From positions 13,715-77,714 of the forward strand of contig CAYZNS010000004.1 in the NCBI GenBank assembly GCA_964479945.1: 64,000 bases of DNA, given 5' to 3'. The position numbers were made by a program, and so were the translations under genes. The notes below the pieces were generated by a model. That model made no database searches. It worked only from the letters and a program-made list of their open reading frames with translations, and was not told the origin of the DNA. Shown piece by piece: positions 2,014 through 50,806 of this stretch; position 1 is the first letter of the stretch; the number at the start of each line of letters is the position of its first letter. The stretch comes from an uncultured Candidatus Saccharibacteria bacterium (lineage in GTDB: Bacteria; Patescibacteriota; Minisyncoccia; Ryanbacterales; 2-02-FULL-48-12).

Positions 2014-2728
2014 CGGAGATTACCGCATAGCAGCCATTGCCGGATTCTTCACCGGTGTTTTCATGTTGCCGGTGCTTTATAACCTTGCCATTGCATTCCC
2101 GTTTGGCTTGCCGTACGTGAGCATCGTTTTTATCATCCCTGTTTTCTGGGTAATTGGCATCTGGCTGGGAAAGGTTCTTTCCCGCTGGCTGGGCATCATG
2201 CCGCAGTTTTCGCGGTATGCGGCCGCCGGATTTTTGAGCTTCGCCATTGATTTCGGCATTACCAATACGCTTATATTCTTTACCGGCATTGCATCCGGGA
2301 GATGGTTTGCCGTATTTAAGGCGGCGGGTTATGTAGTGGCAAATGTTAACGCATATATATGGAACAAATATTGGGTATTCCGCCAATATACGCCGGACGA
2401 GCGTGTATCACTGCGCACAGTCGCGCGCGAATACGGCAAATTCCTGACGGTGAGCGTTATCGGTTTTGTTATCAATGTCTCCGTGGCGTCGCTGGTGGTG
2501 GATGTTATCCGGCCGCAGTTCGGTTTTGCGGAAAAAGCATGGGCAAATATTGCCCTTATAATAGCAACGGCAATAACCATCATTTGGAATTTCGCGGGGT
2601 ATAAATTGTTTGTTTTTAGAAAATCTGTGAATCAGCAAAACAATAATGGCAATGATGAGAGTACGGGTATTGATAATGAAATTCAAAAATCAATATTCAA
2701 AAATCAAAATTACAATTCAAAATTTTAA
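2006..2728 (+). CDS. GtrA-family membrane protein (polysaccharide synthesis/flippase-like)
   Basis: GtrA signature AYIWNKYWVF plus extra N-terminal TM segments; N/Q-rich low-complexity C-tail. Confidence 0.6.
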   Translation: MRDGDYRIAAIAGFFTGVFMLPVLYNLAIAFPFGLPYVSIVFIIPVFWVIGIWLGKVLSRWLGIMPQFSRYAAAGFLSFAIDFGITNTLIFFTGIASGRWFAVFKAAGYVVANVNAYIWNKYWVFRQYTPDERVSLRTVAREYGKFLTVSVIGFVINVSVASLVVDVIRPQFGFAEKAWANIALIIATAITIIWNFAGYKLFVFRKSVNQQNNNGNDESTGIDNEIQKSIFKNQNYNSKF

Positions 2729-2817
2729 ATTTTACACTGTAATTTTTCATTTTGCACTTTTAATTTTGCATTTCATAAGGTCTGGAATACCTGCATTTTT
2801 CGTGTTATCATGTCCTT

Positions 2818-3948
2818 ATGCAGAATCAAGTTTTATATAGAAAATACCGTCCCCAGAGCTTTGGCGACGTGGTGGGGCAGGCGCATGTTACAACCCTTCT
2901 AAAAAATGCCGTCAAGCTGAACCGGGTGGCGCACGCGTTTTTGTTTTCCGGTCCGCGCGGCACGGGAAAAACTACCGTCGCGCGGCTCTTGGCGAAAGCG
3001 GCAAGTTGCGAGAAGCCCAAAGACGGCGAGCCATGCAACACATGCGGCATATGCAAAGAATTTTCTTCCGGCGCCTCGCTTGATCTTATTGAAATAGACG
3101 CGGCCTCTTCCCGCGGCATTGACGATATTCGCGAACTGCGGGAGTCTGTGCGCTTGGCGCCCAGCCGCGGCAGGTATAAGGCGTACATCATCGACGAGGT
3201 GCATATGTTGACAAAAGAAGCATTTAATGCTCTCCTCAAAACTTTGGAAGAGCCGCCGGCGCACGCGATGTTCATTCTTGCGACCACGGAGTTTCAAAAA
3301 ATGCCGGAGACCATTGTATCCCGCACGCAGCATTATGAATTCCGTAAAATCGCAACGCTCGCCATTGTGGACCGCCTCTCCATGTTGGCAGAGAAGGAGG
3401 GGATCAGCGCCGAAAAAGATGCGTTGCGCCTTATAGGCATATTTGCAGACGGCGGCTTGCGCGACGCCGAGAGCATGCTGGGGCAGGTGGCAAGCGGCCG
3501 CGATAAGCTCACGGCGGAAGACGTGCGGCTGGTGCTGGGCGCGCCCAAGGAAGAACACGTACACGCGTTTATTGTCGCACTCTTTGCCAAAGACGCGGGA
3601 ACGGCGGCGCGCATTGCGAACGCCGCGATTGATGAAGGAACGGATCCGCAGATGTATCTTAAAATGAATATCCGCAATGTGCGGCATGTATTATTGCAAC
3701 GGCTTGACGCGAGCGCTGCGGTTCGTCTCAAGGACGATCTTACCGAAGCCGAACAGAAGTTTCTGGGTGCCGTGCCTGTAACGTTGAGTGTTCCGCAGTT
3801 GGAACACATGTTAAAATCCTTGATCGACGCCTACTGGATGAGTTATCGCGCTGTCTTCCCCCAGTTGCCGCTGGAGCTTGCCATTGTGGAAATTTTGCGG
3901 GATAGTTTTGGGGAGGAGAAAAAAGCAGTAAATCATATTGGGGAGTAG
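2818..3948 (+). CDS. dnaX: DNA polymerase III subunit gamma/tau, short form
   Basis: YRPQSFGDVVGQ..., Walker A GPRGTGKT, Zn-module CxxC, DEVHML box. Confidence 0.88.
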   Translation: MQNQVLYRKYRPQSFGDVVGQAHVTTLLKNAVKLNRVAHAFLFSGPRGTGKTTVARLLAKAASCEKPKDGEPCNTCGICKEFSSGASLDLIEIDAASSRGIDDIRELRESVRLAPSRGRYKAYIIDEVHMLTKEAFNALLKTLEEPPAHAMFILATTEFQKMPETIVSRTQHYEFRKIATLAIVDRLSMLAEKEGISAEKDALRLIGIFADGGLRDAESMLGQVASGRDKLTAEDVRLVLGAPKEEHVHAFIVALFAKDAGTAARIANAAIDEGTDPQMYLKMNIRNVRHVLLQRLDASAAVRLKDDLTEAEQKFLGAVPVTLSVPQLEHMLKSLIDAYWMSYRAVFPQLPLELAIVEILRDSFGEEKKAVNHIGE

Positions 3949-4121: not shown

Positions 4122-4787
4122 ATGCTTACGGCACGAGAACAGCATATATTAGAGCATGTAGTGCGGGAGTACATTGCAAACGCTACGCCCGTTTCATCAA
4201 AATGTGTTGCGGATAGCGGTATGATTGAGGCAAGTCCGGCCACTATACGCGCGGTGATGATGTATCTGGAAGACAAGGGGTTTCTGCGCCAGCCGCATAC
4301 GTCTGCCGGCCGTCTGCCAACGCAGCGCGGCTATCGGTATTTTGTGGATCACTGCCTGATACAGGAAGATGAAGCGCATGAGTTTGTAGATTTGCATGAA
4401 GCGCTACGTTTTGTAAGCGGGCGTTCGCGGCTCTTTACAGCCATGGTCAATCAGCGGGCGCATACGGTGGCATATTATGGCGTTGAGACAGTCCTACAGA
4501 GTCCTGAATTTACAGATCCGCACTGCCTGCGCATGTTTGGGCGCCTGGTGGATGCGTTGTATTCGTTTGCCGAATACTACGAGGAAGAATTGGAAGATGC
4601 GGAACAGACGCCGCGCGTATTTATTGAGCGTGAAAACCCGGCGCGGGAAGCGCAGTCGCTAGGCGTGGTAACGGCGCCGCTGCAGGATGAAGCCACATTG
4701 TTTTTCGCCATAGGGCCGTCGCGCATGGATTACGGATCTGCCATATCGGCCGTGCGAGCCATTGCGGAAAATCCTATGTGGCACTAA
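4122..4787 (+). CDS. hrcA: heat-inducible transcription repressor HrcA
   Basis: N-terminal winged-helix LTAREQHILEHVVREYI...SPATIRAVMMYLEDKGFL; CIRCE upstream; grpE-dnaK downstream. Confidence 0.85.
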   Translation: MLTAREQHILEHVVREYIANATPVSSKCVADSGMIEASPATIRAVMMYLEDKGFLRQPHTSAGRLPTQRGYRYFVDHCLIQEDEAHEFVDLHEALRFVSGRSRLFTAMVNQRAHTVAYYGVETVLQSPEFTDPHCLRMFGRLVDALYSFAEYYEEELEDAEQTPRVFIERENPAREAQSLGVVTAPLQDEATLFFAIGPSRMDYGSAISAVRAIAENPMWH

Positions 4788-4790
4788 CAT

Positions 4791-5348
4791 TTGTATATGA
4801 ATAACGAAGGACAAGAAAATGAGAAAGAACAGTATGAACCGGAAGAGGGAGGATTGGACGCAACAAACTTATCAGCCAGAGAGGTAGGGCTTCGGCGGGA
4901 CCTTGCACAGTGCCGCAAGGAGAAGCAGGAGTATCTGCAAGGCTGGCAGCGGTGCCAAGCGGATGCGGTAAATTTCCGGCAGGAAGAAGAGAGGCGGCGC
5001 AAAGAATACGCGCTGTTTGCGGCGGAAGGCATTATACGGGATATTCTGAACGTACTTGCCACATTTCATCACGCGTTTACAGGAAAGGATGATAAGGATC
5101 CTTATACCCGCGGCTTTCGGCACATATATGCGCAACTGGAAGCAGTGCTCCAGAGGCATGGGGTTGAGCAAATCATGACAAACGAGGAGCCGTTTAATGC
5201 GCTGCTTCACGAAGCTGTTGAAAATGTGCCGGTAGAAGATGCGGAGCAAGACAATATGGTTATGGAAGAAGTGGAAAAAGGATATATGCTGCATGGGAAG
5301 GTTATAAAGCCGGCAAAAGTGAAGGTGGGACAGTACAAAGAAAATTAA
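4791..5348 (+). CDS. grpE: nucleotide exchange factor GrpE
   Basis: GrpE coiled-coil plus C-terminal beta domain (…MEEVEKGYMLHGKVIKPAKVKV); operon position. Confidence 0.8.
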   Translation: MYMNNEGQENEKEQYEPEEGGLDATNLSAREVGLRRDLAQCRKEKQEYLQGWQRCQADAVNFRQEEERRRKEYALFAAEGIIRDILNVLATFHHAFTGKDDKDPYTRGFRHIYAQLEAVLQRHGVEQIMTNEEPFNALLHEAVENVPVEDAEQDNMVMEEVEKGYMLHGKVIKPAKVKVGQYKEN

Positions 5349-5469
5349 AAATGCAAAAATAAAAATGAAAAATTACAAATCAAAATGTGAAAATGGAAAA
5401 AGAGGAATAGCGGCAATTTTACAACTTTAACATTGTAAAATAAGATTACAGGTTTATAAATAAAAAAAT

Positions 5470-7371
5470 ATGTCAAAGATACTAGGAATTGACCTCGGTA
5501 CCACCAACTCCGCCATGGCGGTGATGCAGGCGGGGCAGCCGAAAATAATAGAAAACAAAGAAGGGAACCGCACCACGCCGTCCATGGTAGCGGTCTCTAA
5601 AACGGCCGAGCGCCTGGCCGGTTTGCTTGCCAAGCGTCAGGCAATTACGAATCCTAAAAACACCATTTATTCCGCGAAGCGTCTGATCGGGCGCACGTTC
5701 ACGGACGCGCAGCTGGATAAGGACAAAGAAACCCTGCCATATGACATCCGCGCGTCGGCAAGCGGCGGCGTTGAGATTCGCATGGCGGATAAATGGTATA
5801 GGCCGGAGGAGATCTCTGCTATGGTTCTCCAGAAACTCAAGCATGATGCCGAAGAATACTTGGGCGAGAAAATAACGGAAGCGATTATAACCGTTCCTGC
5901 GTATTTTGACGACGATCAGCGGCAGGCAACCAAAAATGCGGGTGAGATAGCGGGCCTTACCGTGCGCCGAATTATCAACGAGCCCACGGCGGCCGCGCTT
6001 GCGTACGGGTTTGATAAAAAGAAGAACGAAAAGATAGTAGTGTATGATTTCGGCGGCGGCACGTTTGACGTATCAGTGCTGGAAATCGGCGACAATACCA
6101 TTGAGGTGCGCGCCACAGGCGGAGATACGCATTTGGGAGGGGATGATTTTGATCAGAAAATTATTGATCACCTTGTCGTGGAATTCAAGAAGGAATCCGG
6201 CATAGATATCTCAAAGGACGGCCTTGCCCTTCAGCGTCTTAAAGAAGCGGCGGAGAAAGCAAAACATGAATTATCTACTACGGTAGAGACGGAAATAAAT
6301 ATTCCCTTTATAACTTCCGGCGCGGACGGGCCGCAGCATCTCCTAATCAAGCTCGCGCGCGCCAAGTTGGAATCCCTGGTGAGTGAATATGTCTTACGCT
6401 CCGTGGAAATAACCAGGCAGGTAGTGCGCGATGCAAAATTTGAACTACACGCGATAGACGAAGTCATTTTGGTGGGCGGACAAACGCGCATGCCAGCCAT
6501 TGTAAATGCGGTGAAGGAACTGTTCGGCAAAGAGCCGAACAAGTCCATCAACCCGGATGAAGTGGTGGCGGTTGGAGCAGCTATTCAGGGCGGCATTATG
6601 CAGGGAGACGTAAAGGATGTTCTCCTTCTGGATGTAACACCGCTTTCGTTTGGCATTGAAACATTAGGGGGGGTATTTACGCGCCTTATAGAAAAAAATA
6701 CCACCATTCCCACGGCCAAAAGCCAGATATTTTCCACCGCCGCGGACAATCAAACGTCCGTGGAAGTGCACGTGCTGCAAGGGGAGCGGGAATTCGCGCG
6801 GGACAACAAAAGCTTGGGCCGGTTTATATTGGACGGTATCCCGCCTGCCCCCCGCGGCATGCCGCAAGTGGAGGTTACGTTTGACATTGATGCGAACGGC
6901 ATCCTCAATGTGAAAGCAAAAGACAAAGCGTCCGGCAAAGAACAATCCATTCGTATTGAAGCGTCTACCGGACTCTCCAAGGAAGAGATAGAGCGCATGA
7001 AGCAGGATGCGGCCGCGCATGCCGAGGAAGACAAGAAACGCAAAGAGACTGTGGAAATGAAAAATACGGCAGACGCGCTTATCTACACGGCGGAGAAGTC
7101 TCTCCGCGACGCGGGCGACAAAGCGCCGGAAGATATCCGCAAAGACGTGGAGACGAAAATAGAGGATCTCAAAAAAGCGAAGGAAGGGGATGACGCGCAG
7201 CAGATTCAAAACGTGTCCAGCGCGCTGCAAGCATCGCTTTCAAAGATAGGCGAGTATCTCTACAAGCAGCAGCCGCAAGAGAACAAAGGCACGCAATCAA
7301 CTGATGATAAGAAAGACAATGTGAAAGATGCGGAGTTCAAGGATGTAGAAGATAAGAATAAAGAATCATGA
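5470..7371 (+). CDS. dnaK: molecular chaperone DnaK (Hsp70)
   Basis: [18 protein letters not shown], full Hsp70 architecture, 633 aa. Confidence 0.95.
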
Positions 7372-27733: not shown

Positions 27734-27855
27734 CTTTGAATAACGAAAACCGCAGGGAATGTGACTAACCGAGCTCTGCACACAAGCGAAGCGAAGTGTG
27801 AATAGCTCGGTTTGGCACATTCCAGATGTCAAATAATGCGTTTCGTTATTCAAAG
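27734..27855. repeat. long palindromic element, copy A of the GTGACTARCCGAGCT family
   Basis: outer inverted repeat CTTTGAATAACGAAA/TTTCGTTATTCAAAG; core boxes GTGACTAACCGAGCTC and AGCTCGGTTTGGCAC; inner hairpin CACAC…GTGTG. Confidence 0.75.
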
Positions 27856-27871
27856 TAAATAAGCAATACGT

Positions 27872-29767: not shown

Positions 29768-30217
29768 TTAATTTCCTAATATTTCATCCAACTTTTTATC
29801 CAACTCTTTTTCATCAACTTTTTCCGCTTGCTTTTCGGGCGTGTCCGCCGGAGGCACGCTGCCTGCAGCTGTTTTTAGTCCCGGCGCGCGTCCGCGCCGT
29901 ACTATCGGCTGGGCAGTTGTGCGCTCCCACGACAGCACTAAATGCCTTACAATGGTATCGTGCGTTTTTACTTCCCGTTCAATGCCGCCAATTGCGGGGG
30001 GTGCGATGGAAAATTGCAGCGCGGCGAAATAGGCCTGCTCTATTTTACGAATGGGATAAGAAAGCTTGCGGATTTTCGGATCCGTGGTTCTCTCGAGCAT
30101 ACCGTTGTATTTTTCAATAATGGACCGAACATTGCCAAGTTCCGCCGCAGCTTCCTCTTCCGATAGCTCCGATTTTATAAGCAGGCCTATTTCATATAAC
30201 TGCGGCTCTTGTGCCAT
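29768..30217 (-). CDS. rpsF: 30S ribosomal protein S6 with acidic/Lys-rich C-terminal extension
   Basis: YEIGLLIKSELSEEE… S6 fold; rpsF-ssb-rpsR order. Confidence 0.75.
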   Translation of the reverse strand: MAQEPQLYEIGLLIKSELSEEEAAAELGNVRSIIEKYNGMLERTTDPKIRKLSYPIRKIEQAYFAALQFSIAPPAIGGIEREVKTHDTIVRHLVLSWERTTAQPIVRRGRAPGLKTAAGSVPPADTPEKQAEKVDEKELDKKLDEILGN

Positions 30218-30223
30218 AAGGGC

Positions 30224-30252
30224 ATTGTACTATAAGGGATCTCTTATAGCAA
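30224..30252 (-). promoter_or_regulatory. candidate rpsF promoter (TTGCTA-17-TACAAT) with embedded 20-bp perfect palindrome
   Basis: minus-strand hexamers; CTATAAGGGATCTCTTATAG fills the spacer; -10 lies ~7 nt from the ATG. Confidence 0.4.
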
Positions 30253-30338
30253 GCAGGTATTTGCCTCGCAGGGCTTGACAAATATTTTATAACATGCTAT
30301 TCTGTCGGCAGAATTAAGAACAAGTGTCTCACCAAAGG

Positions 30339-30482
30339 GGTAAGAGTTCACAAACTCGAGTAAGCGCCAGGATTGTGACTAGCCGAGCTTTACACACACG
30401 CCAAGGCGGTGTGGATAGCTCGGCTTGGCACATCCGGAAATGGAGAAAAGCAATTATTGCTCGAGTTTGTGAGCTGTTACCC
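30339..30482. repeat. long palindromic element, copy B (GCCAGGATTGTGACTAGCCGAGCTT … AGCTCGGCTTGGCACATCC)
   Basis: outer inverted repeat GGTAAGAGTTCACAAACTCGAG/CTCGAGTTTGTGAGCTGTTACC; inner hairpin CACACACGCC…GGCGGTGTGG. Confidence 0.75.
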
Positions 30483-30491
30483 AAAGAGAAC

Positions 30492-30520
30492 TTGACAAGA
30501 ATAGTATAACATGCTATAAT
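30492..30520 (+). promoter_or_regulatory. consensus promoter TTGACA-17-TATAAT
   Basis: perfect hexamers with 17-nt spacer; ~300-nt leader to the next ORF. Confidence 0.55.
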
Positions 30521-30824
30521 ATATCCATAAAAAGAGGATGTACTTCCTAACCGCTTTTCTTTTGTGGAAAGAATGATGGAGGAGAGAGGGCAAATAGGAT
30601 CGGCACTAAATATACATAAGAGGCCGTTACTCCTTACAATCGCCTTCATCGTTCTCTCTATGAAATGAGAGGAGAGATTGGAATAGTTCTTTGTTGAAAT
30701 AACATAAGCGTTCAAACGTGGAACGTAAAGCGTAAAGCGTTAAAACGAATAGCCGGAGAAGTTCTTTGAATTAAATAGTGCTGTTGCTCATATAGATTTC
30801 TGGCCGCTTTTGAGGAGATAGAAA

Positions 30825-31256
30825 ATGTCTTTTCAAACGCGGCTGGAAACTATATTAACCAGCCCGTCAGCTTACCGAGCTACAGAAGCTGAAACGCCAG
30901 AGGAGGCACCAATGGCACGAATAGATTGCACGAAGACAAATTGCGAAACTTTTCGGCAGTTGATTGAAAAACTCAATACCGAAGGGTTCGATATAGATCA
31001 CTTTCATGCGGTTGACCTTATTGAGGTCGATGCTGACTATAGTGGAGGAGAAAAGGTGGTCTATGTCCTCGAGGGCGATATCTTGAAAAAAGGGATAGAG
31101 ATGGTCGTTCATCTCAATTTCGTCTTCGATAAAAACGGCGTCGTAGAAGATGCCGCATGGTCTTCGGGAAATGAGTTGGACGAGAGGATTCACCCTCTCG
31201 ATCAAGATCCGAGAGGCTGGTTCAAGCTTGTTGCCGACGAGTGGCACGAACGATAG
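30825..31256 (+). CDS. hypothetical acidic protein (143 aa)
   Basis: SD GAGGAG; no recognisable family; C3-rich codon usage unlike core genes. Confidence 0.45.
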   Translation: MSFQTRLETILTSPSAYRATEAETPEEAPMARIDCTKTNCETFRQLIEKLNTEGFDIDHFHAVDLIEVDADYSGGEKVVYVLEGDILKKGIEMVVHLNFVFDKNGVVEDAAWSSGNELDERIHPLDQDPRGWFKLVADEWHER

Positions 31257-31266
31257 GAGGGGTGTC

Positions 31267-31623
31267 ATGAAAGAGTTAGATAAGTTTTTTTCGGGTCTCC
31301 AGTCTTGGTACCGGACCCCCATTCGCACCATCTGCCCGTCGTCCCCCTGCCTGTATAAGGGTTGTATTCTCGAGGTTTTGCTCTCAGACCTCGAGATGGA
31401 TTGCCCTGACACAGGGCATCAGGGCTTCCTCTGCTCGGCAGAGGATGGGACGATGGTAGTCTTCGACGAAGCAGGCGGATTGGCTCGGGTCGCCGTTTTC
31501 TGTGGAAATGTGGAAACGGCGAAAAGTCTTTGCCCGGAGGAGCTCCAATGGAGCTTCTACTGGGCAGAAATGAGGGGAGGTGAAATTCACCTCCTGCCGA
31601 GCAAGAACCCCTTCCTGGAGTAA
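31267..31623 (+). CDS. hypothetical Cys-containing protein (118 aa)
   Basis: SD AGGAGGGG 7 nt upstream of ATG; immediately follows the preceding ORF. Confidence 0.45.
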   Translation: MKELDKFFSGLQSWYRTPIRTICPSSPCLYKGCILEVLLSDLEMDCPDTGHQGFLCSAEDGTMVVFDEAGGLARVAVFCGNVETAKSLCPEELQWSFYWAEMRGGEIHLLPSKNPFLE

Positions 31624-31907
31624 CCCCCGTTACAGAAACTCCTCAAAAAATTAATCCGGCCATGCACTGGCTGGCGGCAAGGAAAAGCACTTTTCCTGCG
31701 GGCATTGGTAGGTTCCGAAGCATTTCGGAAGTCCGTTCTCAACGACATCGAGAGAACAAAAACCTACTCTTCTACAAAGCTTTCAAAATGTTTTGAAGGC
31801 TTTGAGAGGAAAGTTCTTCAAAATTACATTATCTCCACTTGTTGGGATGTGTAAGGCGATAGTAGTCGCTTTATATATCTCAATAAGAAAGGAGGTGATA
31901 CTCTACC

Positions 31908-32123
31908 ATGGGCCGGTGGGTCCGATATTTTATCGGCACCCCCGAGCGGTTCATGAGGACGGTGGTTGTCTTCGGACTGATCATTGTCATCCTGAACCCG
32001 GGCTTGCTCGCGTCAGCTGCGAACCAGCTGATTGCCGAGTTAAGCCCGCTCCTCGGGCCCGCGTTGACGATCTTGATCGTCCTCGCGGGAATCCGGATGA
32101 TCCTTGGGGGTCGCCGGAAGTAA
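31908..32123 (+). CDS. hypothetical small membrane protein (71 aa, 2 TM)
   Basis: SD AAGGAGGTGA; hydrophobic; followed by GTCCAC-ttcg-GGTGGAC hairpin. Confidence 0.5.
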   Translation: MGRWVRYFIGTPERFMRTVVVFGLIIVILNPGLLASAANQLIAELSPLLGPALTILIVLAGIRMILGGRRK

Positions 32124-32328
32124 CCGTTGGACTCGGGGACGGCCTGTCCACTTCGGGTGGACGGAGGCGCGCGGATATGCGTCTTGGCAACGGAAGAGGG
32201 TTTCTGGAATTGGCCAGAACACTTCAAAAATATCAGAGGGCGACAGAGGTCCCTCCGCACAAAAACCTCTCCACAACCGAGTTTTCAAAAAAAGTTTGAA
32301 GACTCAAAGTGGAAGTTCTTTGAAACAA

Positions 32329-32449
32329 CCCAGCACTAAATTTTTGGTTTAAATAGTGTGTGACTAACCGAGCTCTATCCCGGTGCAACCGCGGATGGAC
32401 AGCTCGGTTTGGCACTATACAAATATCGAACCAAAAATTTAGTGCTGGG
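32329..32449. repeat. long palindromic element, copy C
   Basis: outer inverted repeat CCCAGCACTAAATTTTTGGTT/AACCAAAAATTTAGTGCTGGG; core GTGACTAACCGAGCTC…AGCTCGGTTTGGCAC. Confidence 0.75.
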
Positions 32450-32536
32450 CAAAAAATCAGTGATTATGTTTGCGCGGTTCATAAAAGAGCGCAATGGCTA
32501 GCATGCCAAGCATGAATAAAAAAATAATTGCTTCAA
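32438..32536 (-). CDS. possible tiny hydrophobic peptide (32 aa)
   Basis: MPVSLFEAIIFLFMLGMLAIALFYEPRKHNH; speculative, no SD. Confidence 0.2.
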
Positions 32537-32557
32537 AAAGTGACACGGGCATAGTTT

Positions 32558-32650
32558 ATTCTTTATGACGCATGGCCCATATAAAAATAATGGTTCCCAT
32601 AGCTCCGATGGCAAGATATGCAAGCATGAGTTTTTGGTTTATGTCCATGG
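32558..32650 (-). CDS. possible tiny hydrophobic peptide (30 aa)
   Basis: MDINQKLMLAYLAIGAMGTIIFIWAMRHKE; tandem with the previous one; speculative. Confidence 0.2.
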
Positions 32651-32769
32651 AATGTTTAAAATTTAACCAGCAGCGGAGATTCGGAAAAACCTCTCCCGCG
32701 AGGAGTATGTGCGGGGTCAGCTGGAGGAGTGGGAGAGAAGAAAAAAGAATTTAAACTGAGGAGGAAAAT

Positions 32770-33027
32770 ATGCCGTTTGAGTTTCCCTACTGCCAGACCC
32801 CAGACGGGGATGATTATGTCTGCCATTGCGGGGTGGCGCTGGTGAAAATCGGCGAGGATGACATGGAGTGGGAAGAAGATGATGATACCCCTCGATCGCA
32901 CATCCGATTCTTCGAGTGCACCGCATGCAAAGAATATTGCGCGGACTGCACAGGAGAATGGGTGCAAGAGGGGATATCAGGACTCGTCCCACTTAACCCG
33001 GCAGACGACAACATCCACGCCAGCTAG
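32770..33027 (+). CDS. hypothetical acidic Cys-rich small protein (Zn-ribbon-like)
   Basis: SD GAGGAGG; CHCG…CTACKEYCADC. Confidence 0.45.
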   Translation: MPFEFPYCQTPDGDDYVCHCGVALVKIGEDDMEWEEDDDTPRSHIRFFECTACKEYCADCTGEWVQEGISGLVPLNPADDNIHAS

Positions 33028-33267
33028 AGGCGGCCTGTCTAGCGCCCTTGCCATGTAAAATAAATCACGCCCCGCAACGGGATGCGTGATGTGCTCCGAC
33101 ATGGCGGAGACGGATCTCTCCACAAAGAGAGGCATCCGTGAGTGGGGACCCTGCCGAAGCAATAAGGCACGGGCGGGACCACAGCGCATGTATGGGAGGG
33201 TTACACACAAAACTCTCCCTACCTTTCTTGAGTACATGTTCTATAATGAAGATGTACTCAAATCAGG

Positions 33268-33573
33268 TTCACCCACACACCTTTTAGGAACATAGCAATG
33301 CATTATTTTTACATCCTTAAAAGTCAGATTGATAAGAAACTATACCGAGGATTTACCGGTAATCTTCGCAGACGATTTGACGAACATCAAAATGGCCGTG
33401 CTCTTTCAACGAAAAATCGTAGACCTTTTAGTTTGGTATATTATGAAGCATATAGATCAAAAACAGATGCGACCCGTCGTGAACAGCAGATGAAATTGAA
33501 TGCGAAGGCTTGGAGTCAGCTTAAGCGGCGTATTGCAACGAGTATAGAAGATACCTAAAAGGTGTGTGGGTAA
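33268..33573. repeat. 17-bp inverted repeats bracketing the GIY-YIG gene
   Basis: TTCACCCACACACCTTTTA (33268-86) vs TAAAAGGTGTGTGGGTAA (33556-73, overlapping the stop codon). Confidence 0.6.
33298..33558 (+). CDS. GIY-YIG nuclease-family small protein
   Basis: YFYILKS…KLYRGFTGNLRRRFDEHQNG…FSLVYYE…RRE matches the GIY-YIG core. Confidence 0.8.
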   Translation: MHYFYILKSQIDKKLYRGFTGNLRRRFDEHQNGRALSTKNRRPFSLVYYEAYRSKTDATRREQQMKLNAKAWSQLKRRIATSIEDT

Positions 33574-33759
33574 ACCGCCACAAGGCTGTTGAGTCAGTAC
33601 AACGGAATCGGGTTAAAGCGACGTTGTGAGATTTTTTAAAGATCTCTCTCCTCTAAACAATGTTTCTTGACCCGTATAATTTCTGTTTGCTGGCTCACAG
33701 CCTTGTGGCGGTACATAAAAAACCGCCTCGGATAATCGAGGGGGCACGTATCTCCATAC

Positions 33760-34785
33760 CTATATCTTAAACTCAATTACGTCGCCGTCTTGCACGATAT
33801 AGTCTTTTCCTTTCGTTTGCAGCATGCCAAGTTCACGGGCTTTTGCGTATGAGCCTGCTTTCACAAGATTTTCATAACTTACAACTTCCGCACGGATAAA
33901 TTTTTCTTCAAAATCGGAGTGGATAGCGTGGCCCGCTTGCGGAGCGGACGATCCTTTGGGAATTGCCCACGCGCGCGTTTCTTTCTCGCCCGTGGTAAGG
34001 AATGTGATAAGTCCGACTACCTCATACGCTTTCGTAATAAGCTCGCCCAAGCGGGATTCGTTTTGCAACTCTCTGGCGTCATCGCCGAGCTCCACGATCT
34101 CTGCTTCAAGTTTGATATTAAGTTGAATGGTGTGCAATGCTCGGCTTTGCACATTTTGGTTTGCAACATTCAAAATGTATATGAATGGTTTGGCGGTCAG
34201 CAGATGCATTTCACGAAGAACTTCCTCCGCTTGCGTCTCCGGCGGGGTGTATGCGGATGCGAGCTTGCCTTCTTGAAGCAGCTGTTTGATTGCGCGGGCA
34301 GCTTCCATGCGTTTTCTCTCGTTGCCGCCTCCCGTTTTCGCTTCTTTCTCAAGCCGGGCTGCTGTTTTTTCTGCAGTTGCGAGATCAGCCAGCGCAAGTT
34401 CCGTGTGAATGGTATCTATGTCATCTTCCGGGTCAATGCGCCCGGCGACGTGGTGTATATCAGGGTTTTCAAATGCGCGTACTACTTCCACTATTGCATC
34501 AACTTCGCGTATGTGCGAGAGGAATTGATTGCCAAGCCCTTCGCCTTCGTGAGCGCCTTTGACGAGTCCCGCGATGTCCACGAATTCTATTGCCGCGGGA
34601 ATAATTTTTTGCGAATGTGAAAGAACGGCAAGCTTTTGCAATCGTTCGTCCGGTACCGTAACAACGCCCACATTCGGATCAATGGTGGCAAAGGGATAAT
34701 TAGAGGTATCCACTTGTTTTTTTGTGAGTGCCTGGAACAGCGTGGATTTACCTACGTTGGGAAGGCCGACGATACCGATTTTCAT
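33760..34785 (-). CDS. ychF: ribosome-binding ATPase YchF
   Basis: GLPNVGKST, NxxD, C-terminal TGS domain. Confidence 0.9.
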
Positions 34786-46026: not shown

Positions 46027-46037
46027 GCAAAGCAGAC

Positions 46038-46722
46038 GCCAGGATTGTGACTAGCCGGGCTTCGCACACGCCCTGCAAGGGCGCTGTGAGTAGCCAGGCT
46101 TGGCACACTCCCCCACCAAAATTTTTGGTGGGGGAGCACATCCGGAAAAAGGTGGACAAAAAATTAAAAGTATGCTAAAAACTATGCAGACAGCAAACTG
46201 CATAGTTTTTTTGAAAGGGGGATTTGAAATGTCTGATCAGGAAAAAATACATGTTGCGTTATGCAATATTGGCAACATACATCTCACTAGAAAGATGGGC
46301 GAAATTATAGTATTTTGCTCCTTTAATAACCATATCAATTTCTATTTTAATGAGTCGGGAGTGCTTGAGGAGATTGAACTTTATAATTCACCTTCGTATC
46401 ATAGAAATATCCTCCAAGCCAGACATGAGTGGACAGGAACGCTTATCGGCGTCCGGTTGGAAGGAGATGAGTTATATCTCTATCCAAATAACGCTGGACT
46501 CGTGAAAGTGAATCTGAGAACTGGTTTCTTATACACAAAGTAACATTGATTGGGAGAGGGTGATATTCTCTCCTTTTTTATTGACATTTTTGATGTGTGC
46601 GTATATCATATTGATATTAATCTATATGTAATTTATTTTTGAAGTTTCTGTATCAATGCATTCTGGATGTGCTCCCCAACCAAAATTTTTGGTGGGGGAG
46701 TGTACCAAGCCGGGCTACTCGC
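46038..46722. mobile_element. palindromic element copy D split by a ~520-nt insertion with 58-nt terminal inverted repeats and a cargo ORF
   Basis: left TIR 46086-46143 and right TIR 46665-46722 each contain the 29-nt palindrome CTCCCCCACCAAAATTTTTGGTGGGGGAG; interior has its own terminator, SD, low-GC ORF, second terminator and a TTGACA-17-TATCAT promoter. Confidence 0.5.
46229..46543 (+). CDS. hypothetical protein (104 aa), cargo of the inserted element
   Basis: SD AAGGGGGA; AT-rich codon usage; no family recognised; the track ORF begins at an upstream ATG (46100) inside the repeat. Confidence 0.45.
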   Translation: MSDQEKIHVALCNIGNIHLTRKMGEIIVFCSFNNHINFYFNESGVLEEIELYNSPSYHRNILQARHEWTGTLIGVRLEGDELYLYPNNAGLVKVNLRTGFLYTK

Positions 46723-50684: not shown

Positions 50685-50806
50685 ATGTACTGTGAATTAC
50701 GAAATGCATTATTTGACATCTGGAATGTGTCATTTCGTAATTCACAGAATGTATATAATCCGTGAGCGAAGCGAACACCAAAATTTTGAATTTTGCACTT
50801 TAAATT

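Follow-up and report, generated by a model that had tools for sequence, protein, structure and literature searches.

A GIY-YIG nuclease gene closed off by a co-varying hairpin stem: probable copy of an intervening-sequence-like mobile element in a Candidatus Saccharibacteria genome

The subject of this report is a small cassette in a 64,000-nucleotide (nt) stretch of DNA from an uncultured Candidatus Saccharibacteria bacterium (assembly GCA_964479945.1, contig CAYZNS010000004.1, positions 13,715 to 77,714 of the forward strand), here called the window, in which positions are counted from the first letter. The cassette consists of an open reading frame (ORF) for a GIY-YIG nuclease (33298-33558, plus strand) within a long inverted repeat, and an ORF-less palindrome, module 2 (33574-33712), lies at its downstream end. 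Our data favor the view that the cassette is a copy of a selfish hairpin transposon resembling the intervening sequences (IVSs) of rRNA and that module 2 is its ORF-less relative; we put the probability of this reading at roughly 0.6. It agrees with an earlier note on this DNA, made from the letters alone, which had tentatively proposed a selfish nuclease module in an inverted-repeat cassette: the family to which the cassette belongs occupies 53 contexts, has defined ends and direct-repeat flanks, and includes ORF-less derivatives.

The left arm of the inverted repeat (33266-33288, plus strand; GGTTCACCCACACACCTTTTAGG) and the right arm (33554-33576, plus strand; CCTAAAAGGTGTGTGGGTAAACC) have 23 nt each, are complementary at 22 of 23 positions and leave 265 nt between them. 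The earlier note was right that the ORF is flanked by an inverted repeat and too short in its length, which it gave as 17 bp; its observation that the right copy overlaps the stop codon holds, since TAA (33556-33558) lies within the right arm, which also covers the final codons. A check for further copies found the 21-mer of the arm at no other place in the 64 kb and in none of 100 shuffles, and one for paralogs found no other GIY-YIG gene in the window. The left arm overlaps the Shine-Dalgarno sequence AGGA (33286-33289), whose AGG forms the inner end of the arm and which stands 8 nt before the ATG. The arms contain the cores CCCACAC (33272-33278) and GTGTGGG (33564-33570). Upon folding of the 311 nt from 33266 to 33576 as RNA, the arms become the closing stem (minimum free energy [MFE], −87.3 kcal/mol; z, −5.2). 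The ORF is intact, and the site is non-coding DNA. No promoter-like site turned up in a promoter scan between 32886 and the cassette ORF, and the TATAAT boxes at 33242-33247 and within module 2 have no −35 box at usable spacing.

The ORF encodes a single-domain protein of 86 amino acids (aa). Pfam GIY-YIG (PF01541) matches residues 1-71 (E value, 4.9e-15; 56 bits, cut-off 22.6), and no further Pfam domain was found beyond them. All residues that are invariant in a 10-sequence alignment of the family (Y5, Y16, G18, R26, H30, and E62) are intact; from what is known of I-TevI and Slx1, we take Y5, Y16, R26, H30, and E62 to be catalytic. The AlphaFold2 model (predicted local distance difference test score, 88.6) has the secondary-structure order E-E-H-E-H-H, and Foldseek matched it to UPF0213 and Slx1 proteins at a probability of 1.0 (template modeling [TM] score of 0.58-0.64; for Slx1, root mean square deviation of 2.1-3.5 Å). 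By sequence, the closest solved proteins (1ZG2 at an E value of 1e-13) are the orphan UPF0213 proteins BH0048 and EF2693, followed by Slx1. The nuclease, no more than a catalytic domain, belongs to the UPF0213/Slx1 branch and not to the I-TevI type. On this point we depart from the earlier note, which had likened it to a homing endonuclease: an enzyme of the I-TevI type is ruled out by the score of the NCBIfam model for group I intron endonucleases (TIGR01453; 19.7 bits, under the cut-off of 56.05), by the weak fold match to I-TevI (TM score, 0.45; probability, 0.54), by the lack of a DNA-binding domain and by the lack of an intron nearby (intron models gave no match at E values up to 5 in 30100-33900). 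The cassette encodes no recognized transposase (DDE, HUH, serine, or tyrosine), its sole ORF being the GIY-YIG domain. A phage or defense origin was considered and rejected, as no relative was found on IMG/VR viral contigs, the nuclease had no match among the PADLOC defense models, and the only PHROG match was marginal and to a family of unknown function.

A HMMER search gave 512 cluster representatives at E values up to 1e-10, and among the matches listed most were 80-130 aa long. Scanning 185,579 species-representative genomes yielded 477 relatives, of which the best 80 were taken further together with loci found earlier (86 ORFs in total); these best 80 come almost all from metagenome-assembled genomes (MAGs) of the candidate phyla radiation (CPR)/Patescibacteria. 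An inverted repeat scoring at least 11 flanks 66 of the 86 ORFs, compared to a background best of 6-9 in loci without a repeat. In a strict motif test, 55 ORFs were enclosed and a further 9 had an adjacent hairpin only (~64/86).

The outer end of the stem is an almost invariant core, CCC-N-CAC, which pairs with GTG-N-GGG. Even within the core, the N pair co-varies (C-G in 28 cases, U-A in 11, G-C in 9, and A-U in 3), and along the next ~11 pairs of the stem the sequence changes while complementarity is kept. The arms in the window agree with the family consensus at each position (TTCACCCACACACC compared to TTTACCCCCACACC). Covariation was tabulated from an ungapped alignment of the arms of 52 sequences, with a helix of 19 pairs. 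Paired cells made up 92.8%, a share inflated by the choice of rows for having an inverted repeat, against 62.5% after shuffling; changes on both sides occurred at 16 of the 19 pairs, and the covariation score was 0.709 (0.149 when shuffled and 0.10-0.17 with the partners slid). Mismatches of the stem, read on the ORF strand, are G-T in 18 cases and A-C in 6. Furthermore, stems often extend up to or over the start codon and also cover the final codons; where an RNA is the host, the ORF is on its strand in about 29 cases and not in one (L090). The G-T bias, the agreement of strands and the position of the stem over the start and last codons together indicate that the hairpin matters in the sense transcript. 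As far as these sequence comparisons go, the stem is a family character under selection.

Rfam and ARAGORN confirmed 23S rRNA, 16S rRNA, the 16S-23S spacer, RNase P RNA, and the 5' ends of tmRNA (transfer-messenger RNA) and tRNA as hosts of the family. Several relatives sit at helix tips of 23S or 16S rRNA (L008, L009, L011, L033, L038, L041, L044, and L048); protein P0010 is encoded in a 23S rRNA and P0006 in a 16S rRNA. L011, whose protein resembles that of the window most closely (67% identity), has its insert at the helix-25 position of a 23S rRNA. Comparing this 23S site by eye with the Escherichia coli 23S rRNA, we take it to be the tip of helix 25, where IVSs classically occur; the 16S insertion sites, also judged by eye, are in helix 6/V1, V2, and V3. 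The 23S gene of L011 has group I introns elsewhere (4677-4932 and 5520-5811), and in L048 the cassette-hosting 16S gene is closely followed by a fragment of a group II intron (L048:6037-6114). Since rRNA genes with cassettes also carry introns, the cassette is one of several kinds of insert per gene. Two of the loci, L073 and L078, are from one MAG.

In RNase P RNA, P0003 is encoded in the P12 loop of a class-A molecule (Rfam, 212 bits; L003), which has a second hairpin-bounded insert further on, and P0008, in our own reading of the sequence, at P3 of another. Four to five more RNase P RNA hosts score under the gathering threshold (E values of 1e-6 to 1e-26), several of these genes because of the inserts themselves. 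Protein-coding hairpin inserts in RNase P RNAs were located at L003:4846-5766, L005:~4963-5855, in L023, L037, L039, and L072 (~2700-3370), and at L090:333-902 (minus strand). By eye, the GIY-YIG ORF is in P12 (L003), P3 (L005), or the P15-17 region, and the same RNAs hold further hairpin inserts that are ORF-less or carry other ORFs.

At about a dozen loci, the GGGG/GGGC that ends the right arm doubles as the 5'-terminal bases of a tRNA (mostly tRNA-Ala) or of tmRNA. These are L068:2974-3610, L077:935-1572, L013, L019, L029, L034, L055, L064, L070, L078, L081, and L084. A partial copy of the first 7-11 nt of the tRNA (mostly tRNA-Ala-TGC) stands just upstream of the left arm at such loci, and the G-run of the element seems to rebuild the 5' end of the tRNA. 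At L066:3268-3455, a tRNA-Ala-like start of ~20 nt is followed by ~110 nt extra before the tRNA call, and at L075:3273-3376 and L058:3272-3340, hairpins without an ORF directly adjoin the 5' end of a tRNA and are flanked by the same direct repeats.

Clustering of the flanks resolved the 53 distinct contexts, most of them outside any RNA gene. An Rfam scan of the 20 loci that were then without an rRNA or RNase P motif match found no known RNA at the cassette in 16 of them. Many of the loci without a known RNA have the cassette 0-1 nt after the upstream stop codon and <20 nt before the next start. The nearest ORFs within 40 nt upstream are co-directional in 23 cases and opposite in about 6-8.

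One sign of mobility at the level of DNA comes from L040: over the stretch that runs exactly from CCCGCACAC to GTGTGCGGGT, two cassettes separated by 2 kb share 85% identity, and their flanks are unrelated. This homology from core to core defines the unit, which runs from CCC-N-CAC to GTG-N-GGG, its ends being the outer part of an 18-23-bp stem around a single minimal GIY-YIG gene. With the outermost C...G taken as the hairpin ends and repeats counted if they abut both ends, direct repeats of at least 4 nt were found at 37 of 98 hairpins, compared to 3 of 98 in a shifted control. In 27 hairpins they are exactly 4 nt long (TTTA, TAAA, TATG, CAAG, TAGA, TGAA, TTGA, and CGTG), and about 24 independent sites are left after collapsing orthologous loci. 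The contig of L051 begins (L051:1-20) exactly downstream of the second cassette site of the related L040 (L040:643-676), as would be expected if assemblies break at these repeats.

Hairpins with the same ends and without an ORF occur near GIY-YIG genes as minis of 25-40 nt and elements of 60-150 nt, in nested and tandem arrangements; about 40 were counted in 430 kb around GIY-YIG genes, compared to 1 in 597 kb of CPR loci selected by YchF. Their interiors are not conserved between distant genomes. In one orthologous group of eight loci, an ORF-less element of 136-141 nt recurs directly after the ORF. Two arrangements stand out: a hairpin nested within another hairpin upstream of a 16S gene (L041:2170-2314), and a GIY-YIG ORF that is placed not in one stem but between two direct copies of a 109-nt ORF-less hairpin (L052:1766-2267; arms beside the ORF, GGGGGTAAACC ... 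GGTTTACCCCC). The window itself contains a 29-nt mini hairpin of the family (CTCCCCCACCAAAATTTTTGGTGGGGGAG; 46108-46136, no strand assigned) between CACA at 46104-46107 and CACA at 46137-46140. It interrupts one copy (46036-46150) of a hairpin motif that is repeated in the window, and a paralogous copy of that motif (30425-30440; GGCACATCCGG) is the empty site.

The motif so interrupted has four full plus-strand copies in the window (27736-27862, 30338-30482, 32329-32449, and 46036-46150), one of the copies being just upstream of recA, and a partial inverted copy at 46664-46722. Its inner core (GTGACTARCCGRGCT ... AGCYNGGYTTGGCAC) keeps A·G and T·T mismatches and has one compensatory pair, the outer stems differ between copies, and eight matches were found with 0.17 expected. 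The motif had no Rfam match and was not found in ~1 Mb of other CPR loci. A palindrome at 50688-50760 (CTGTGAATTACGAAATG ... CATTTCGTAATTCACAG) matches in its interior 42 nt of copy D of the motif in reverse (27816-27857; 93% identity), a match that spans the 3' outer-stem arm of copy D and has no inner motif; this suggests nested palindromic elements in this genome.

Module 2 has perfect arms of 16 nt (33574-33589 and 33697-33712) with ~107 nt in between, and its 139 nt (no strand assigned) form one almost continuous, imperfect hairpin (RNA MFE, −74.8 kcal/mol; z, −11.7 as RNA and −8.2 as DNA). The earlier note had described a 23-bp repeat around a non-coding segment of ~90 nt; the inverted repeat and the absence of an ORF stand, whereas the perfect arms are 16 nt and the whole is a long palindromic element. 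The ends, CCGCCAC (33575-33581) and GTGGCGG (33705-33711), differ from the family core in one compensated pair (C-G flipped to G-C). From end to end there are 137 nt, which matches the size of the 136-141-nt ORF-less hairpins next to GIY-YIG genes elsewhere, and the flanks are TAAA and TACA. By its ends and size, module 2 is probably an ORF-less, non-autonomous member of the hairpin family of the cassette and not the separate second module that it had been taken for. BLAST against the ~1 Mb of fetched loci found no homolog of module 2, nor of the hairpin and the spacer upstream of the cassette described below.

In about 15 relatives, the gene order is PGM, ychF, rpsF, ssb, rpsR, with a gap of 130-170 bp between ychF and rpsF. 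In the window, ychF and rpsF are separated by 3.5 kb (30218-33759), a block or island of small plus-strand ORFs, all opposite in direction to ychF and rpsF, and hairpin repeats. The cassette and module 2 form the ychF-proximal edge of this block, in line with the island-edge position given in the earlier note. Nor did the syntenic relatives have an orthologous GIY-YIG gene at this place, the finding that would have spoken against that note; there, ychF is directly followed by rpsF.

This bears on a prosaic explanation, in which the ORF is an ordinary housekeeping UPF0213 gene, the stem a regulatory or mRNA-stabilizing structure, and module 2 a terminator. The stem does hide the ribosome-binding site, and module 2 does lie between convergent genes. 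However, relatives have no such gene at the syntenic position; identical stem ends are found around ORF-less inserts and in rRNA and RNase P RNA; and module 2, a hairpin of ~60 bp, has no T-run, unlike the adjoining terminator of ychF (33726-33741, minus strand), an intrinsic-terminator-like hairpin with a T-run at the end of this convergent gene, 14 nt past module 2. The explanation is already contradicted and hardly tenable.

Given that the cassette family habitually nests in stable RNAs, the copy in the window could also lie in, or at the 3' end of, a structured RNA gene that went unrecognized, which would be compatible with a mobile hairpin element and would make that host RNA the actual discovery. 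The spacer upstream of the cassette (33028-33265), an ORF-free stretch of 238 nt between an 85-aa Cys-rich ORF and the cassette, is a row of hairpins and strongly structured (z, −5.7), and hairpins flank the region on both sides. On the other hand, Rfam gave no RNA at the cassette, either at the gathering threshold over the 64 kb or at E values up to 5 over 30100-33900, and neither did ARAGORN, which found no tRNA or tmRNA. The region is in a lineage-specific insertion that is absent from relatives and therefore not a conserved RNA gene, and the spacer had neither a family match nor a BLAST match in the ~1 Mb of fetched loci. We give this possibility little credence. RNase P RNA and rRNA were considered in particular as hosts of the window cassette and were rejected after Rfam, ARAGORN, and motif searches without a host: there is no rRNA in the window, and a search for the RNase P motifs CR-I and CR-IV, by eye and by motif, met only chance 11-mers elsewhere in it.

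Two further explanations were weighed. In the first, the cassette is an old IVS that acts purely at the level of RNA and was spread by homologous recombination or horizontal transfer of the RNA genes, and the nuclease has an unrelated role, e.g., in repair. The helix-25 position in 23S rRNA is the classical IVS site, and UPF0213 proteins also occur as ordinary stand-alone genes. For CPR, the literature reports short insertions of the IVS type and GIY-YIG ORFs in rRNA insertions that are not introns (PMC11270868). Most of the 53 contexts, however, are outside any RNA gene, and the copies in operon spacers could not have arisen by recombination between conserved RNA genes. Direct repeats adjoin the ends much more often than in the control, the flanks of paralogous copies are unrelated, and the window offers a filled site next to an empty one. 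We consider this explanation very unlikely.

The main rival is that the hairpins propagate by another enzyme or by recombination and that the GIY-YIG ORF rides along as a homing passenger. The nuclease, as a dimer, would recognize the two close cores in a short palindrome, its intact target, and the ORF, by separating the cores by ~285 nt, would immunize the site. Palindromes of 25-40 nt that have these cores but no ORF do occur, one of which inserted alone in the window with a 4-nt duplication, and the outer cores alone are invariant. Moreover, GIY-YIG enzymes are best known as homing endonucleases, and the partial duplications of tRNA 5' ends resemble the co-conversion tracts of intron-less homing. 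Against a passenger speak the L040 paralogs, which share the whole unit including the stems, so that ORF and stem travel together, and the overlap of the stem with the final codons and often the start codon, with which it co-varies, pointing to a long association. Furthermore, ORF-less and ORF-bearing hairpins of one locus differ in the inner stem (L018 and L079), and no other transposase candidate was seen beside the elements. In the balance, a homing passenger appears unlikely to us, and we retain the hairpin transposon as the preferred reading.

How would such a hairpin transposon live and move? The cassette leaves no room for a promoter of its own and would therefore be transcribed by read-through from the host unit; it is likely co-transcribed with its host, the stem looping the insert out of tolerant RNAs or operons. 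In the transcript, the stem would close off the whole insert as one giant stem-loop, which would leave the host structure undisturbed where the insert sits at the tip of an rRNA or RNase P RNA helix, in the leader of a tRNA or tmRNA, or in an operon spacer. Since the stem buries the ribosome-binding site and the start codon, the nuclease would be made only briefly or rarely, with translation limited to the time before the right arm is made. The long double-stranded RNA stem would also be a substrate of RNase III, as in the IVSs of rRNA. At the level of DNA, the whole core-to-core unit would be mobile and would in most cases leave a 4-nt direct repeat at the new site. The Slx1-like nuclease would probably cut the conserved ends or hairpin or cruciform DNA and may make a 4-nt staggered cut at the target, and the ORF-less hairpins would be non-autonomous derivatives. 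That the nuclease is the transposase of the element is a tentative proposal, to which we give somewhat less than even odds. We are equally reserved about the idea of a new class of transposable elements, which would be defined by an Slx1/UPF0213-type nuclease of ~85 aa, CCC-N-CAC hairpin or cruciform ends, a 4-nt stagger, ORF-less miniature inverted-repeat transposable elements (MITEs), and a stable-RNA niche in CPR.

Several points weigh against the transposon and its mechanism. No direct repeat borders the window cassette (TTCA compared to TAAA), whose inverted repeat instead extends outward beyond the ends (GGTTCA/TAAACC). No empty allele was found, as all five public contigs with identical neighboring proteins carry the cassette (exact-protein look-ups with the GIY-YIG protein, ORF85, and YchF), and a metagenome scan with YchF gave nothing above 61% identity; elsewhere in the family, the contig of L051 stops short at the counterpart of the second L040 site. 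The direct repeats are uneven in length, mostly 4 nt and 5-7 nt at tRNA 5' ends, a spread that one transposase would not normally produce. Hairpins without an ORF are concentrated around GIY-YIG genes and not dispersed, possibly as a result of local duplication. The selection of rows inflates the percentage of pairing in the covariation table, although compensatory changes are unaffected by it. To our knowledge, an 86-aa domain without a DNA-binding module has no precedent as a transposase; the cutting activity is predicted from sequence, and movement of DNA by this nuclease is accordingly uncertain. RNase III cleavage and translational masking, finally, are deduced by analogy and from the sequence.

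The sequence TAAACC, which follows the right arm in the window, is also found there in L052, L015, L020, L022, and L027. A short hairpin (33221-33268, no strand assigned; stem of ~17/21 bp and a 6-nt loop, TATAAT) abuts the left arm and is not of the CCC-N-CAC type. The ORFs of the island match no family in Pfam, NCBIfam, PHROGs, or PADLOC, the four tested against the PADLOC defense models included. Upstream of the cassette, the island contains a perfect consensus promoter (30492-30520; TTGACA-17-TATAAT, with TG before the −10 box). This site and a second promoter-like site (30275-30303) share TATAACATGCTAT and flank copy A of the repeated hairpin motif at the rpsF-proximal end of the island. 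On the minus strand of the island (32455-32650), two tandem ORFs of ~30 codons, translated by eye, encode the hydrophobic peptides MDINQKLMLAYLAIGAMGTIIFIWAMRHKE and MPVSLFEAIIFLFMLGMLAIALFYEPRKHNH and converge on hairpin B.

If the proposed mechanism is true, the nuclease would be the smallest transposase-like enzyme known and would represent a new mechanistic class, and the orphan, widespread UPF0213/YhbQ proteins would gain a first function. CPR bacteria are known for rRNA gene insertions that have gone unexplained, and for those that bear GIY-YIG ORFs outside introns neither an architecture nor a way of spreading had been described. These non-intron GIY-YIG insertions in the rRNA of CPR gain defined ends, a co-varying stem, insertion footprints, and short derivatives, and their host range is widened beyond rRNA to RNase P RNA, the 5' ends of tRNA and tmRNA, and operon spacers. 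The inserts also affect the annotation of CPR genomes, as they break the detection of RNase P RNA by covariance models and the assemblies at the repeats.

The family is only partly described in the literature. Brown et al. reportedly came across GIY-YIG ORFs in non-intron insertions of CPR rRNA genes in 2015. Such ORFs have since been published as sparse, not spreading, and seemingly outside homing (Tsurumaki et al. 2024, PMC11270868); by term counts, that paper makes no mention of inverted repeats or RNase P. They are probably of the same protein family as the window protein. Beyond these ORFs, the features of the cassette were not found: terminal repeats, target duplications, or ORF-less derivatives of GIY-YIG cassettes, their tRNA/tmRNA or operon-spacer hosts, and protein-coding insertions in RNase P RNA are all absent from the full-text literature searched, which covers few subscription journals, so that this absence is weak evidence. 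Like the cassette relatives in 23S and 16S helices, the published rRNA insertions are not in group I or II introns; they are in rRNA, whereas the copy in the window is not.

Classical IVSs of 23S rRNA are sporadic inserts at the tip of helix 25 or 45 with a long stem of inverted repeats, and some bear an ORF (S23p of Coxiella, Leptospira). The cassette shares with them the long closing stem (22/23 bp) and the ORF in the loop, and relatives of it occupy the helix-25 site. It differs in its cargo, a nuclease in place of the four-helix S23p/IVP protein, in ends that are conserved across hosts, in the location of most cassettes outside rRNA, and in the flanking direct repeats, which indicate insertion at the level of DNA. 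IVSs of bacterial 23S rRNA are removed by RNase III without religation (PMC11270868).

With respect to the enzyme, the best sequence and fold matches are to Slx1 and UPF0213 proteins (YhbQ, BH0048, and EF2693), and Slx1 is the closest characterized enzyme. The substrates of Slx1 are branched and stem-loop DNA, in keeping with an enzyme that acts on hairpin ends; the window protein differs from Slx1 in having no RING/PHD domain and no Slx4 partner. We know of no function assigned to the bacterial UPF0213 proteins. With I-TevI and the Seg proteins of T4, the nuclease has the catalytic fold in common, and the elements resemble them as selfish genes in or beside essential or highly expressed genes, with a partial duplication of the host-gene end beside the insert, here at tRNA 5' ends. 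In contrast, the window protein has 86 aa compared to about 245 aa, no linker or DNA-binding domain, and no intron, and the cassette family has terminal inverted repeats, 4-nt direct repeats, and many unrelated sites.

The cassettes also resemble insertion sequences and MITEs in their defined terminal inverted repeats and in copies at multiple unrelated sites, and differ from insertion sequences in lacking a recognized transposase. Closer in form are the repetitive extragenic palindromes (REPs) with their associated RAYT transposases (REPINs) and the hairpin MITEs, namely, Correia/NEMIS of Neisseria, ERIC, and the Rickettsia palindromic elements (RPEs). Correia hairpins are substrates of RNase III, and RPEs insert into RNA genes. 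Short ORF-less hairpins and, probably, co-transcription with neighbors are common to all of these and the cassette family, and a nuclease gene between inverted hairpin repeats is found in the REP/RAYT system as well, a likeness of architecture only, since RAYT is an HUH/Y1 transposase and the enzyme of the cassette a GIY-YIG nuclease. Unlike these hairpin elements, the cassettes carry direct repeats at their ends, and whereas Correia, ERIC, and RPE are without an ORF-bearing "master" copy, the cassette family has one.

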